Assembly: GCA_964016885.1 (NCBI GenBank) | Contig: OZ024747.1 | Span: 73,780,001-73,844,000 of the forward strand | Length of the DNA: 64,000 nucleotides | Source of the DNA: Eledone cirrhosa | Taxonomy: Eukaryota | Reading direction: 5' to 3' | Shown: positions 7,015 to 63,650 of the stretch, piece after piece | Layout of the letters: each line of letters begins with the position of its first letter | Position numbering within the stretch: position 1 is the first letter of the stretch | Notes under the pieces: generated by a model | Seen by the model: the letters and a program-made list of their open reading frames with translations, nothing else | The model's database searches: none | Told to the model about the DNA's origin: nothing | Translations under genes and position numbers: made by a program

Positions 7015-7182
7015 GGAAACAGTTTAACCCCAACGGCAGAGCTCAAGCCGTTTCGACGACTATTTCTGTCGAAACGGCTTGAGCTCTGCCGTCGGGGTTA
7101 AACGTTTTCCTATTACCCACTCTACTATTGAGTACTCTGGTGTGTTATGATCCATCTGGTTCCTTACCACACCTCCTTCGTT
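7015..7182 (+). mobile_element. PLE family A terminal fragment as a fold-back in (TA)n
   Basis: Inverted arms 7015-7057 and 7068-7110, then a tail homologous to 45680-45760 and 46276-46355. (TA)n on both sides. Confidence 0.75.
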
Positions 7183-10100
7183 TTATATATATATATATAT
7201 ACGGTATGCCTGTAAATGTGTAAATAATATATATTTATGTGTGTGTGTATTCATAGAGCTACACAAAATCCTGTACACACACACACATACATGGGCATTC
7301 ACAGTCACACACGTATATTTATGTATATGTACACTTATACAGAATTTCATAGAAATATACGGACACACGCATACATTCATGTTTGTGAATGTATCGGTGT
7401 GTGTGTGTATGTGTGTGTGTGTGTGTGTGTGTTTGTGTGTGTCTGCCTGTTGGAAATCATTGCATGGAGGTGAAACTATGTATGTAGGTATGTGTGATTT
7501 AAAGATGGCCTTGTATTAACCAGCAATGAGCAGTCTACGTTTGCCAGATTTTATAGGACAGGTGCAATACGGTGTTGTGTTATTAATGCTCAGAATTATT
7601 GATAATATAAATTTTTTTCTTCTTTTTTTATTGAACCCTCCTGAATAACAGTTGAACAGTTGCCCAGCAACACTTATAATAATAGGCTGCCTATTGTCAT
7701 TGTGTGAAATCTTAAGATATTGGCAATATTATATTCTGCCCGAATGCAGTTTCAATTCTCGACTTCAATTCATGCGATTTTACTTCAATTATGTCTCTAC
7801 GAGTTAAGGATGTGGCCTCTAGTTGCTAGATATTGTAACTAATACTCCCTCATCAACAATCATAGTTTCTTAATAAAAGTATGTAATTGTTTGATTTAAT
7901 ATAACCGTTACTTAAGCTAACGAATTACTTTAGCTAACCAAATCGGAGAGATAAAAGTTCAACATCTGAGATAATTGTTTCTTAAAAACAAATAACTGTG
8001 ATATTTGTGAAATATAAAATAAGGACTCCTCCGGTTTTGTTGAAAGGATAATGTTTATATAATCGACACTAACACACAAATATTGTTCATTTTCTCGACA
8101 CTGACAGATGAAAAGGAAATTGAAGTTTGAACATAAGATAAGGTGTCTGGGTTTTGCAGGGTATCCTAAAGTACGGATAAACTGTGAATTTAAATTGAAA
8201 AGCAGGCTACAATTTATTGTAATCAACAAAAACCACATCAATTTTCGATGTAATATATCAATACTTTGTCCATATTCTGAAAGCTGTATGTGTCGTGACA
8301 TCACTATATTTCTCAATGTCTTACTTGAGATGGTAGTAATTGCCTGTATACATATCTAACATTTTATTAGGTGAATACCTTGCCCGAACTGTGTCATGAA
8401 TTCAATTTGCCAAATATATCATCAGCATCACTTAAACAACAAGGAAACATCAACTTACTAAAATAACACTGTAATAACAGTGGACCACAGCAAATTGTAA
8501 TTCTGGCATGTCATTCGTTTTTATAAAATTGTAGGATGATGATATGTAACAGATTGACTAGTGTCCAAATACTATTAGAGAATTGGCTACAGTTTGAGAA
8601 AAGTAAAATAAGATGCGATGAACGAAAAGGAACATCACGTTTCTTTTCTTTGCATTTTCTCATAAGAAATCTAACTGTTATTTTATCAAAGTTCATGCCA
8701 CTAAATGAGATGGCACAGAAATATAAACTTTCTGCTGTTTTACAGCTCTATTGCCATAGATTTTCCTCTACTTCATTCTGTTATATTTATGTTGGACTTT
8801 CCATAGGGAGAGTAACTATCGATAATATATTCCCTTTTAAAACGTAATACAAGAAAAACCTTTAAGGAGGAATTAAGTCCGTGACATTCATATAATATCT
8901 AAACACGTAGCTGGAACACACAATAATGAAATGAAAATAAAAATATAAAGGACACATTATTATCATTATGATATACGCTAAAATAATCTTGGAATTCAGA
9001 AGCTTTGTAATTTGATTTCGAAATAGAAAATTGATACCGTTTTTTTTTTATATGGACAAGTAACATTCAACAGTGACATATGTTGGTATTTTCCTCTGTA
9101 AAGAACTAATAATTCATATCATGCCAACAGCGTTGTATGATACTTTGATAACAAAACTGGATAATACGTAACCTATATATCTAGCATTAAAACAAGACTG
9201 GAGACATTAGAAACAAACTGGTATAGAGTCATATACGAATATTTACATTTACACACCTAACTATGTGGTAGAAAATACAGCAATCAGGAAATGTATAGAG
9301 TTCGGTATCAATGATCAGTTAAACCTGAATGATTTATGTGTGGTGCATACTTATAGCTCTAGCCAAGGGAAATATTTTGAGAGACGTGGAATGCAAAGGT
9401 ATATTAGAAGTCCTTGCGGCAGTTAATTACAATACTTCATGTTCTGTGTTTAAATCATTTCATCTCTCAAGCTTCAACTAGTATAACCTGTTAGAAGTTA
9501 TTTTATTTGAACCACTACAGCTAATCAAGTATCTGTCGTTAACTGGTTGTAATACGATAATGTGTTCAGGTCTGTTAATCAGACTGTGTAAAAGAAAATA
9601 CAACTCGGGTAGAACATCTTAATTTATTAAATTTAAGATTTAATAATGACGAAAATGCTGTTCGTAACGTTTACTCCTGTTATAAGCATTTTAGCAAGGT
9701 GCGACGGTAAAGGTGCTGTGTCCCTGTTTCAGTTTTATCAATAAATCTCTTTTTTATGTGAATAATATTTAAGGCGATTGAACATTTAGAGTGTATTTTC
9801 TCTTTTCATATTCACCACCTGCCGGTAGGATTTTGTATTATAATTAGTGGTACAGGGGATAAAAGGAAATTCAGATTAATAGGATGTGCACCGAGTGCAG
9901 TGGATAGCGTTAACAAGCTTCAATATTTAACAGGTGCTTTCTATTGCTTAGGCTGTACTTGACTAATCCCAAAATTAACATTCTATGGAAAATACAAAGA
10001 AAATATTTTAGATGGAAAATAGAGGAAAGTTGAAATCACAACAATCGATTGGCAGTTTGAACGTTAAAGCGTTAGAACAATTATGTAGCATATATTTAAG

Positions 10101-11524
10101 GACGACTCCATCCTGGGTTCAATTCATGCCAAAGTCAAATTCATCTTTCATTCTTCACGGGATAGAGTACGTGTCAAGAGCAGTGTTAGAGTATATTCCT
10201 ATAATACGTAGATATGAATAGAGATATCATTGAAGTAAAATATATAAAAGTAGATACAATATTTTAACGTTGATTCTTGCCAGTTGAGGTAAACATGGTT
10301 GAGTGTATGGTTATCAAATGTGATTTACATAAGTGGAATATCACCTGTGGTCGCATCTGAATTTCAACCATGTGATACTCAAACAGATATTGCAACGTTT
10401 ACCTACTTTTATTCTAATAGCCCTGTCGTCTCTGGAAATCATTTTACAGCGAATTCTTTTAACATATTCACAAAACAACAAGTAGGTAGAGAAACGATTT
10501 TCGAATGAATTGATTCATATACGTAACTGGATACTTATTTGATGAATCTTCGAGATATTAATGTCATGGTCAGTAACTGGTAACTTTATGTCTAGCATAA
10601 TACTGTAACCAGAGGTTTGATCTCAATAGAAGGTATGTGCTTTTATGACTTTCGAAACTGGAATGCATATCTGTGTAGTATTTTTTCAAAAGGAAATACA
10701 CGGTGTAAACAAAAGCCAAATGTTTCAGGAACGTGTGTTCAGATATATTGCATATATCATATTTTTCTATGTGCCTGTAAAATTGGGCACCTATGAGTCA
10801 TGACTAGGATGCCCCACGACCCCTTTAAAATGTAAGAAGTTAAAGGTCAAAACACTTGCTTGAGTGGGAGAGAGCTTCTCTGAAGACCTTCTGTGGTCCA
10901 GCTTTCCTGAGAGTTTCTTACATCCCAGTAACATTTGTTAATGAAATCTCACATCATTGAAATATTTTTCTTGACTAAATAAGAAGTATTTCAAATGTTT
11001 ACAGCAGAAATACACTATAAATAATTATAGCATAAGAATGTTTGTTAAGGTACATATTTTTTATTTTACAGGTGTTCCTGTAAACCAAGTGATATTATTT
11101 ATTTTCCTGATATCATGACTTAGTTATTAATTAACCGGAGAAGTTACCAACTGAAATTATAACTAGTAATATCACAAAAATCTACAATTAATAGTTTCCC
11201 TAAGTTCACTGCATATCTTCAACTTGCCAAATATTACATATTGTTTCTCATTCACTAATAAATAGCAAATTACTTGTGTGTCGCGCCATCAATTGATCGC
11301 TCGATTCACTTATCAACTCTATACGACATCAACGATTAATACTAAACAATAATCAAACACACCGACGTTCTGAGACTGGAGTCTTTAACTAACAAACGTT
11401 TGAATAATTGTAATATTACAATCATGAGAAAACCAATCTTATACACTATGATAGTATATTTCAATGAACTGAATAGTATTGCACTTCATGATAAAATACA
11501 AGAAACGAAAAACATGCTTTGTGC

Positions 11525-11660
11525 ATATAGTTGCGTCCCTTTAAGTTCTGAGTTCAAATCCAGCAGCGGTTAGCTTTGCCTTTTATCCTAACGAGGTCGA
11601 TAAAATAAAGTTCCAATAACGCACTGGGTCGATTTAATCAACTTTCCCCTCCCCACAAAA
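11525..11660 (+). mobile_element. Partial SINE, same superfamily
   Basis: gagttcaaatcc...ctttgccttttatcc...ggtcgataaaataaagt..gcactgggtcgatttaatc. Confidence 0.75.
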
Positions 11661-62487: not shown

Positions 62488-62604
62488 CTGAGTTCAAATC
62501 CCGCCGAGGTTAACTTTGCCTTTCATCCTTCCGGGGTCGATAAAATAAAGTACCAGTAATGCACTGGGTAATTGCTGGCCTTGTGCCAAACGTAGAAACA
62601 ATTA
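62488..62604 (+). mobile_element. 5'-truncated SINE copy
   Basis: B box through tail, collinear with the consensus. Confidence 0.85.
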
Positions 62605-63316
62605 TCTATATATGTAGCTGCACATCTTAACCTTCACTGTGTGAAAAATGAGAGAAAAAAATGTTAAATTAATGAATTTTCTCTTTTATCTCTAGACGCA
62701 AAACAATTTGAATAAGTTTGAATATTTCGTATATCAGCATTAGAATTCAGTTACACAGTCGAGTCGACAGATACACTGGTGTATATAATAAACCGAGAAG
62801 CAGATAGAACTCAAATTATTTATCTAATTCATTAAATCCGTATAACTACGAGATAGGACACATTTGTCTAATTTCAATGACGATCCAAACGCTGACGAAT
62901 ATATTTATACAAGTATTCTAGAACCTTACAATAAATAGGAATATAGGATAAATGTACCAGCGTGTGCTATTAGAGAACATGCACTTTAGAGGTTCCTTGT
63001 TTAAATATAGTCACCATGGTCAATCAATACCCACACACATTTATATACATTTTAGACATATATATAGAATATTCAATTTGTGTATTCATCGTCTCACCAA
63101 GATCTTCATATATCTATCGCTCTACACTTGTACCTCAATATTTGTCTATATGTGCGTACATGTATATATACGTGTATATATATATATATATATATATATG
63201 GGTGTGTGCGCGCACGCGTTTGGTGGTATAAACATATATATATATATATATATATATATATATATATATATATATATATATATATATATATATATATATA
63301 TATATATAATAATAAT

Positions 63317-63650
63317 AATAGAATATAAAAGAAAAACGAACACAGACATGTACATATATGTGTTGAAATCGTAAGGGACCTGATTTGCTAAGGTAGTTAG
63401 CAATTCCGGTTTGTATTTATTTTCTAAATTTTTTCTTAAATTGAGACAAGCGAACCCAATTGTCTATAGTTAGTATTCTTTTCACCTTAGCGAATCAGGT
63501 CCCTTACGATTTGAACACATATATGTATATGTCTGTGTTCGTTTTTCTTTTATATTCTATTAAAATATACGGCTCAGAAATATCCCTTTCTTAGAGCTAT
63601 TTTATTGTAAGAGACTATTTTGAGTTCCTAACTCAATATATACCTTTGAT
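63317..63650. mobile_element. Fold-back element with a one-sided tail in (TA)n, probably a PLE end; no HHR seen
   Basis: 63317-63394 is roughly the reverse complement of 63484-63561 with a few mismatches; ~90-bp spacer and ~90-bp tail. Confidence 0.6.

Follow-up and report, generated by a model that had tools for sequence, protein, structure and literature searches.

The palindromic ends of Penelope-like elements (PLEs) that sit in (TA)n tracts of the window, i.e., of the whole 64,000-nucleotide stretch of Eledone cirrhosa DNA analysed, were probably made anew, with both ends of a cut (TA)n tract serving as primers for copying a single sense RNA, likely capped, into cDNA from two fixed starts. 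Newly noted is that, in three element families, the turns between the two arms of these stubs concentrate at an initiator-like YY-A-N-T site and carry an extra G.

Layout of the loci in the window

Inverted repeats were found by self-BLAST and by mapping on full-length relatives at all seven places for which the original prediction had reported palindromes. The parts of these loci and of some further insertions are as follows.

7015..7068, minus strand: family A (Hydra PLE) inverted tail-less arm, reaching to +5 of the inferred RNA start, with only the 3' half of a hammerhead
7068..7182, plus strand: family A tailed arm ending in (TA)n
12716..14011, minus strand: family D (Hydra PLE) tailed arm comprising the tail, the pLTR, the 3' UTR and the last part of the GIY-YIG ORF, matching a tandem copy at 94%
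14011..14349, plus strand: scrambled junction with three GIY-YIG ORF fragments, read as template switches
14333..14918, plus strand: family D tail-less arm with atypical hammerhead core, ending in (TA)n
14941..15108, no strand assigned: additional locus, family C relative, with an inverted tail only (14943-14989) and a tail-less arm (14981-15108)
31925..32271, minus strand: family B (Hydra PLE) tailed arm, ending precisely on position +1 of the inferred RNA start, with a hammerhead core substitution
32265..32485, plus strand: family B tail-less arm, intact type I hammerhead with long stem II
43360..43507, minus strand: solo pLTR stub without tail, from a relative of family C, with an intact minimal hammerhead, flanked by (TA)n tracts
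44148..45760, plus strand: 5'-truncated family A copy with GIY-YIG end, 3' UTR, pLTR, tail and (TA)n
46276..46517, minus strand: family A tailed arm, older (~82% to relatives), damaged U3-A8-type hammerhead
46522..46750, plus strand: family A tail-less arm, extending ~70 nt beyond the tailed arm at 46276..46517 in the 5' direction
53371..53491, minus strand: inverted arm of family F, its minimal hammerhead intact, lacking the 3' part and (TA)n
53492..53741, plus strand: family F tailed arm running into (TA)n, with no certain link to an ORF
54356..54540, minus strand: tail-less arm of family C (a young Hydra PLE), matching a full-length copy at 100%, with an intact hammerhead
54539..54820, plus strand: family C tailed arm beginning at position +2 relative to the inferred RNA start, with an intact hammerhead
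54736..54755, plus strand: stem with the RCTC-loop-GAGY pattern, 7 nt behind the tail-less end
63312..63394, minus strand: family E (linked to a Hydra-type RT) tail-less arm without hammerhead
63392..63648, plus strand: family E tailed arm without hammerhead, because it starts 10 nt behind the family E hammerhead cleavage site

The predicted layout, consisting of (TA)n on both flanks, one tailed and one tail-less arm and 3' ends pointing outward, holds for six of the seven loci, with the tail on the left at 12716, 31925 and 46276 and on the right at 7015, 54354 and 63317. It fails at 53371, where the left arm ends ~130 nt before the tail-less end of the family and without (TA)n. The tails measure 55-140 nt instead of the 70-130 nt first given, and the postulated link of the larger members to GIY-YIG sequences was confirmed for 12716. 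At 12716 and 46276, the longer members represent ordinary 5'-truncated copies derived from the 3' pLTR. The locus at 14941..15108 is not a fold-back, because its two arms have no sequence in common. The first 205 nt of the family A copy at 44148..45760 are duplicated at 43852-44057.

Affiliation of the element families

The Penelope-like origin of the stubs is supported, with five of the six families (A-E) tied to Hydra-clade ORFs. Family C contains a 738-aa ORF between two pLTRs, encoding an RT followed by a C-terminal GIY-YIG domain; the ORFs of A, B and D are broken, and the RT and part of the linker were recovered for family E. The domains were assigned from motifs, and searches of Pfam and PDB with the family C protein gave no match. 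RWR (RWK-type) and DKT in place of DKG are present in A, B, C and D but were not seen in the recovered part of family E, which does not include the N-terminus. As judged from the alignment, B, C and D have the CxCX5C linker, CxxC and CxH around E and N, and no CCHH; two cysteines of this motif set are substituted in a broken family A copy. A Neptune-type ORF lies between two F copies at one locus (L261) and is at most a candidate ORF of family F. Judged by these sequence features, and by a comparison with the published Hydra sequences by eye, the loci should be regarded as short insertions of Hydra-clade PLE ends, and the families as new members of a known clade.

Insertion into (TA)n and pairing of the ends

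The expected enrichment of (TA)n at the junctions was borne out in a blind sample of 71 x 10 kb (710 kb; the script had the family B tail end mis-set and under-detected family E), since 71 of 76 family 3' ends there adjoin (TA)n, compared to 7.1% of random positions. All 16 inverted pairs in this sample combine a tailed with a tail-less end and have TA on both flanks. The same combination occurs in 172 of 176 inverted pairs at fetched loci and in all 50 scorable family C palindromes; the four exceptions among the 176 compare with 4/19 in family E. The flanks of young inserts are longer than the length-weighted background (median 64 vs 24-38 nt). This does not demonstrate the suggested seeding of the (TA)n landscape by the stubs: several inserts lie inside pre-existing interrupted arrays, and only 46 of the 617 long (TA)n tracts in the blind sample adjoin the six families.

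Turn hot spots and the extra G

Identical turn points do recur, with 84 palindromes at one family C hot spot, and one and the same turn can lie in either orientation with respect to the tail (9:6 and 4:4), next to about 20 turn variants. Non-native junction matches at +1 number 783 in family B and 5157 in family A, and 52 of 84 family A 5' ends fall within 10 nt. In the three families A, B and C, the junction lies at the same A of an initiator-like YY-A-N-T, which reads TY-A-GT in A, TC-A-TT in B and TC-A-CT in C; no hot spot was seen in the small, query-biased samples of families D, E and F.

An extra G occurs at the turn in 31 of 52 cases, but only in 3 of 22 at a control site (p=3e-4), and also at 7 of 13 solo ends. 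Family A shows it in 86 of the first 100 rows, with only A or G allowed and 47 of the 100 being ambiguous G rows, or in 39 of 53 without ambiguous rows (hand count), and family B in only 30 of 100; these A and B counts stand without a genome-wide control position. Some junctions of families A and C have C on one arm and G on the other, and a subfamily letter is common to both arms in 43 of 44 rows, although this concordance could also reflect subfamilies active at different times or gene conversion. The extra G likely represents a copied mRNA cap, as far as this can be read from DNA, and the template would thus likely be a sense RNA, not the antisense RNA suggested in the literature; untemplated addition of C is conceivable at any RNA 5' end.

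An RCTC-loop-GAGY stem lies behind all nine start sites examined (chance 1.4%); family F is devoid of it, and full-length elements carry a second copy behind the tail end.

A splice-acceptor origin of the hot spot was rejected, as the AG is retained, and an odd turn recurring in five loci (L309-L313) was rejected as a mobile master, both polarities being present in the subfamily. A downstream-promoter match at +28 to +32 fits family C only.

Hammerheads

The claim that most arms carry a type I hammerhead was overstated, since an intact motif with canonical core is present in 4 of 14 arms (both at 54354, the right one at 31925 and the left one at 53371). Six of the remaining arms have variant or damaged motifs and four half a motif or none (7015, 63317). 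These motifs were read by eye; a descriptor search proved too strict and missed known ones. Predicted pLTR hammerheads show a canonical core in the references of B, C and E and variant cores in A and D, and the commonest stubs, those of family A, contain half a hammerhead only. No hammerhead appears among the 150 of 231 Rfam rows listed, which are miRNA-like matches to TA hairpins. Turns at the hammerhead cleavage site were found neither in A, B and C nor among 56 family E 5' ends, and head-to-tail hammerhead arrays or tandem monomers are absent from the seven loci. The hammerhead is likely a passenger in the stub-forming step.

Proposed mechanism and alternative explanations

Priming from both ends of a cut (TA)n tract, already part of the original prediction, is supported, while the term fold-back remains appropriate for the shape of the loci but not for the mechanism, since identical turns occur in both polarities. 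The tail-less arm is the longer one in 55 pairs, the tailed arm in 23, and 94 pairs differ by no more than 10 nt; 18 pairs do not overlap at all. Both polarities, the longer tail-less arms and the 18 pairs without common sequence favour twin priming over a fold-back. The same turn in both polarities together with some 20 variants is what would be expected from repeated de novo formation at an RNA 5' end.

In the proposed sequence of events, the GIY-YIG domain would nick both strands, and 2-4 nt of TA would pair with the RNA at each start, whose position would be determined by an RCTC-loop-GAGY stem lying 6-10 nt downstream. At the tail-less site the RT would lead, and the one at the tail site would follow and displace it. 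With the RNP sitting on the 5' pLTR/ORF junction, both cDNAs may run off the RNA 5' end at YY-A(+1)-N-T, where a C would be added opposite the cap, and the cDNA ends would then be joined via 0-6 nt of microhomology, yielding the palindrome. The second stem is absent from the stubs, which are therefore likely dead-end by-products. On balance, though by no means firmly, it seems that Hydra-clade PLEs in general integrate by obligate two-site twin priming of one capped sense RNA, that the paired RTs are placed by the duplicated RCTC-loop-GAGY stem, and that tens of thousands of stub palindromes constitute a run-off record of RNA start and cap.

It appears unlikely that twin priming takes place but the hot spot is a stalling or processing site of the RT and the G a product of terminal-transferase activity. 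Some arms read as extending past +1 by 1-3 nt, the family A site overlaps a splice-acceptor-like TTTAG, and the family C site follows a pyrimidine tract, all of which would suit such a reading. Against it, three unrelated families share the A of YY-A-N-T, the AG is retained and not spliced, the control site shows no excess of G, and no hot spot coincides with a hammerhead cleavage site.

The idea that the palindromes are non-autonomous retrozyme-like units, transcribed and reinserted, is quite improbable. The recurrence of identical turns speaks for it, and the stubs could be transcribed, as they contain the inferred initiator and downstream sequence. Yet the independent mobility considered in the original prediction is not supported by the many turn variants, their two polarities and the lack of arrays; moreover, the stubs are devoid of the second stem, which is situated beyond the tail, family A stubs carry half a hammerhead, window loci contain no tandem monomers, and pairs of two tail-less ends, which stub RNA should yield, occur once in 176.

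Self-priming, by which a cDNA or, as proposed for Adineta PLEs (PMC3846280), an antisense RNA folds at a short inverted repeat and copies itself before the copy is cut at the tail-less site, is very improbable. The commonest family C turn does coincide with a natural 6-bp inverted repeat; however, a copy of a tailed cDNA cannot hold sequence absent from the tailed arm, and among the 78 unequal pairs it is the tail-less arm that is longer in 55. The pairs lacking common sequence and the two polarities of one turn are equally at odds with snap-back, and the cap-like G on either or both arms indicates a sense RNA copied twice. Self-priming is thus largely refuted as a general route but could account for a minority of perfect hairpins.

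Palindromes are a known class of long-read artefacts, and terminal inverted repeats between TA recall MITEs or foldback DNA transposons with TA target duplication, but both explanations can practically be dismissed, given that the arms are 3' ends of RT/GIY-YIG elements with an asymmetric tail, nucleotide-precise ends and a variable turn, that the flanks differ on the two sides in all listed loci, that older copies have diverged arms, and that both ends run into (TA)n in another study's raw reads and another organism's contigs, the raw reads also containing strand-change joints (mostly from related subfamilies, not the window junctions).

Implications

If twin priming is correct, inverted pLTRs would no longer be attributed to antisense self-priming, and the dependence of PLE movement on tandem copies would be explained. 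The relevant parts of PMC3846280 and PMC8557442 call the inverted ends, the one-sided tail and the choice between sense and antisense template open. Thousands of young junctions in the genome discriminate between the models and name an RNA start, two RT starts and a candidate cis stem, and the young family C with its intact 738-aa ORF is on hand. Extrapolation from 16 cases in 0.71 Mb suggests that the stubs contribute perfect or near-perfect hairpins at a density of about 23 per Mb, with possible consequences for silencing and genome stability.

Comparison with known systems

Inverted ends, one-sided tails, (TA)n targets and opposite-strand hammerheads have already been published (PMC8557442, PMC3846280, PMC4209133). 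The window families share RW[RK], DKT, CxCX5C, CxxC/CxH, the lack of CCHH, pLTR hammerheads and (TA)n insertion with the Hydra clade of C-terminal EN+ PLEs (Craig et al. 2021, PMC8557442), and the family protein matches the Hydra-1_Obim entry when compared by eye. The layout of an inverted 5'-truncated pLTR with one-sided tail is the same in PMC8557442 (Fig. 2 legend) and PMC3846280, with tails of 30-40 nt there and 55-140 nt here. Turn hot spots, a cap G, strict pairing of tails and a start stem are absent from the parts of PMC8557442 considered, and the families described here are new. PMC3846280 reports palindromes at the inverted junction and an Inr-like TCACT in the Adineta pLTR, but its self-priming on an antisense template is contradicted by the present junctions. 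No paper uniting PLEs with twin priming or a cap G was found in a body of literature with limited coverage of subscription journals; supplements such as Fig. S2 of Frangieh 2024 may bear on novelty.

Schistosoma PLEs have dual minimal hammerheads on opposite strands, 100-700 bp apart (Cervera and de la Pena 2014, PMC4209133), and share the U3-A8 core variant with family A; the one sentence on this arrangement gives neither anatomy nor mechanism. Metazoan non-LTR retrozymes (PMC7229834; bioRxiv 10.64898/2026.07.22.740005) are, like the stubs, non-coding, equipped with type I hammerheads and related to PLE pLTRs, but they form head-to-tail tandems and circular RNA, whereas the window stubs are head-to-head and often lack a whole hammerhead; none of the seven loci contains two or more head-to-tail units in succession that each include a complete hammerhead. 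Nor do the symmetric terminal inverted repeats and fixed internal sequence of MITE/foldback elements occur, the tail being one-sided and the turn variable.

The Poseidon element PAc cuts and extends both strands in vitro from two internal starts bounding the tail, does not need hammerhead cleavage and is predicted to act as a dimer (Frangieh et al. 2024, PMC11167929). Its start is an AC-rich stem-loop without target homology, unlike the TA microhomology rule seen here; in the parts considered, the inverted ends are left unexplained and run-off to a cap is not reported. In L1, an extra G marks capped full-length inserts, and twin priming (PMC11702581, citing Ostertag and Kazazian 2001) involves internal priming by the second target end, joining by microhomology and a cap G, as is likewise proposed here. 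The L1 cDNAs barely overlap and their second start is variable, whereas the stubs have two fixed starts and overlapping cDNAs, from which palindromes arise.

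Inverted Insertions in the Window

The window is AT-rich animal DNA in which (TA)n tracts number about 150. With simple repeats masked, self-BLAST recovered all seven inverted repeats. They consist of ends of Penelope-like elements (PLEs; putative for F) from six sequence families, A-F, and are named here by their start positions. The layout originally described, with a tailed and a tail-less copy (arm) of the element 3' end, both pointing outward and each flanked by (TA)n, was retained at six of them; at 53371, for which (TA)n had been noted on one side only, the left arm is shortened and has no (TA)n beside it. 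The claim that most arms carry a type I hammerhead ribozyme goes too far, as inspection of the 14 arms by eye yielded four intact canonical motifs, six variant or damaged ones, and four cases of half a motif or none. The proposed link of larger members to GIY-YIG relics was borne out by 12716, where the inverted 3' 1.3 kb of family D is followed by three scrambled ORF pieces and a 586-nt tail-less arm.

Inverted loci and other features of the window
7015, 46276, also 44148-45760: family A
31925: family B
54354, with relatives at 14941 and 43360: family C
12716: family D
63317: family E
53371: family F
30300-31230: eighth inverted insertion, relative of family F; left damaged tailed arm, right tail-less arm, then a short extra inverted piece
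46846-47549: short inverted tail-less arm, family A-like, fused to the end of a Hydra-type ORF with 42% to the family C protein; no 3' end was found for it
14850-14896: putative hammerhead-like motif, family D; non-canonical core CAGAAGA, kept in many copies
45575-45665: putative hammerhead-like motifs; subfamilies of A have CTGAGAA or TTGANAA as non-canonical core, kept in many copies
1061-4860, minus strand: broken non-LTR retrotransposon with reverse transcriptase (RT; Pfam RVT_1, 7.7e-20), then zinc knuckle and restriction-like endonuclease motif; presumably R4/NeSL-like by motifs
27761-28138: presumably a Mariner-like transposase fragment by motifs; no Pfam match
21865-23246: direct repeat of 745 nt in two copies that have diverged, both containing an old inverted repeat
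4173-4358, 15336-15522, 26912-27098, 35003-35182, 43061-43215, 62488-62612: 190-nt dispersed repeat, common, SINE-like, independent of (TA)n
49755-49930: (TA)15 forms the centre of a perfect palindrome of 176 nt, which is enclosed by a perfect inverted duplicate of 86 nt (49043-49128 / 50030-50115); no recognisable PLE arm; perhaps an assembly error or the outcome of repair

Identity of the Families

The family C ORF contains the RWR, DKT, CxCX5C, CxxC, and CxH motifs and lacks CCHH, a combination described as marking the Hydra clade of PLEs (PMC8557442). Broken ORFs of the same type are linked to families A, D, B, and E, in the case of B through a 2.5-kb repeat-rich UTR. On the evidence of these linked ORFs, families A-E are assigned to the Hydra-clade PLEs, F being a candidate, and the claimed PLE origin is thereby upheld for five of the six families. 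A Neptune-type ORF (CX4CxxC linker, CCHH endonuclease) lies between two family F copies at another locus (L261:3380-5000). The family C arm plus tail gave 891 candidates in its own 3.0-Gb genome, and the 40 scored were 100% identical.

Association with (TA)n

The predicted enrichment of (TA)n was confirmed in a blind sample of 71 evenly spaced 10-kb stretches chosen without regard to content: 71 of 76 family 3' ends adjoin (TA)n, compared with 7.1% of random positions, in a count in which the tail end of family B was mis-set and family E under-detected. All 16 inverted pairs in this sample (about 23 per Mb) combine a tailed and a tail-less arm with TA on both sides. Among search-selected loci, the same combination was found in 172 of 176 pairs of families A, B, C, D, and F (166 with TA on both sides) and in 15/19 pairs of family E, whose exceptions fall in three loci, two of them continuing into the next unit. 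Strand-change joints, and both ends entering TA, also appear in contigs from a second organism and in the raw reads of a different study, which mostly represent related subfamilies; the palindrome class as a whole is not an artefact, with read support coming mostly from these subfamilies.

Flanks of earlier inserts serve as targets for later ones. At L055, L203, L211, L221, and window positions 14918-14941, different PLE families stand end to end with a (TA)n tract alone between them.

The Turn and the RNA 5' End

In three unrelated families, the junctions between the arms (turns) cluster on the A of YY-A-N-T (TC-A-CT in C, TC-A-TT in B, TY-A-GT in A), a hot spot that we take to match the initiator consensus. 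Non-native junction matches at this base, counted as arms rather than loci, number 52 for C, 783 for B, and 5157 for A, and at loci not picked by an A query, 52 of the 84 5' ends in family A lie within about 10 nt of it. The base preceding the A is G in 31/52 family C junctions versus 3/22 at a position 20 nt further downstream that served as control (Fisher p=3e-4), and in 7/13 solo ends adjoining (TA)n. Hand counts of the first 100 matches listed gave 86 G for family A, with a pattern admitting A or G only (39/53 after removal of 47 rows whose G possibly came from the other arm), and a weaker signal for family B (30 G, 50 A, 20 T). Some A and C junctions carry the extra base on both arms, as C then G. 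An extra G is a mark of capped full-length L1 inserts (PMC11702581), TCACT in an Adineta pLTR has been termed Inr-like (PMC3846280), and Penelope possesses an internal promoter with an initiator (PMC2377424). We infer from these sequence features that the turn represents the 5' end of the RNA template, probably a capped sense RNA; an RT starting close to this end would run off it. The loci 7015, 31925, and 54354 turn at the hot spot, and the remaining four are ordinary truncations. No hot spot coincides with the hammerhead cleavage site; the hot spot of family A is located in the stem II loop, and the commonest stubs of this family therefore retain only half a ribozyme.

Probable Twin Priming

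The published interpretation of such palindromes, offered tentatively, is self-priming with an antisense template (PMC3846280). A hairpin copy folded back from a single cDNA cannot yield what was found here. A pattern search for short-loop forms gave 84 family C loci; 55 palindromes were examined, and all 50 with both ends scorable were tailed plus tail-less (two pairs being local duplicates). Identical turns do recur elsewhere, and the two most frequent ones are found in either orientation with respect to the tail (9:6 and 4:4). The 5' reach of the arms was compared in 172 pairs: the tail-less arm went further in 55 and the tailed arm in 23, the other 94 agreeing within 10 nt (p=4e-4). Finally, 18 pairs, including window 14941-15108, join an inverted tail to a tail-less arm with zero shared sequence. 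Fold-back is therefore rejected as the general route, and both target ends probably prime, consistent with a PLE protein which cuts and extends both strands in vitro and uses two internal start sites (PMC11167929). Both arms of family A pairs carry the same subfamily letter in 43/44 informative rows (hand count), the subfamilies being about equally common, which suggests a single RNA source; timing or conversion could mimic this. In several pairs without overlap (L240, L236, L054, and L261), the tailed arm ends at most 5 nt from the start site of the tail-less arm, as though a block at this point had stopped the trailing RT.

At both 3' ends, 2-4 nt of the TA are microhomologous to the bases that follow in the element itself. 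Of the start sites examined in A-E, 9/9 are followed after 6-10 nt by an RCTC-loop-GAGY stem, a putative start signal (random rate 1.4%; the second site of B was not recovered); the stem is absent in family F and paired in only some cases according to RNAfold. A second copy lies beyond the tail, at the start of the ORF region, and is therefore absent from stubs. If it is required, stubs would be unable to remake a tailed arm, in agreement with only 1/176 tail-less/tail-less pairs.

Mobility and Comparison with Known Systems

Independent mobility of the stubs, as originally suggested, is unlikely, given turns in both polarities and the missing second stem. As putative dsRNA sources, they have arms with stable predicted folds. 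As to seeding of (TA)n, the summed flanks of 47 young inserts have a median of 64 nt versus 24-38 nt for length-weighted background tracts, which is compatible with tract gain, duplication, or long-tract preference; several inserts sit inside pre-existing interrupted arrays, and 46 of 617 tracts of at least 20 nt adjoin the six families.

Inverted truncated pLTRs, one-sided tails, and (TA)n targets (PMC8557442), as well as hammerhead pairs on opposite strands and the U3-A8 core (PMC4209133), are already published. Searches of a limited body of literature turned up no paper that describes a cap G or twin priming in PLEs. A-F are new families, and the mechanistic result is testable. The suggested likeness to retrozymes did not hold: retrozymes consist of tandem units (PMC7229834; bioRxiv 10.64898/2026.07.22.740005), and the seven loci contain no such array.
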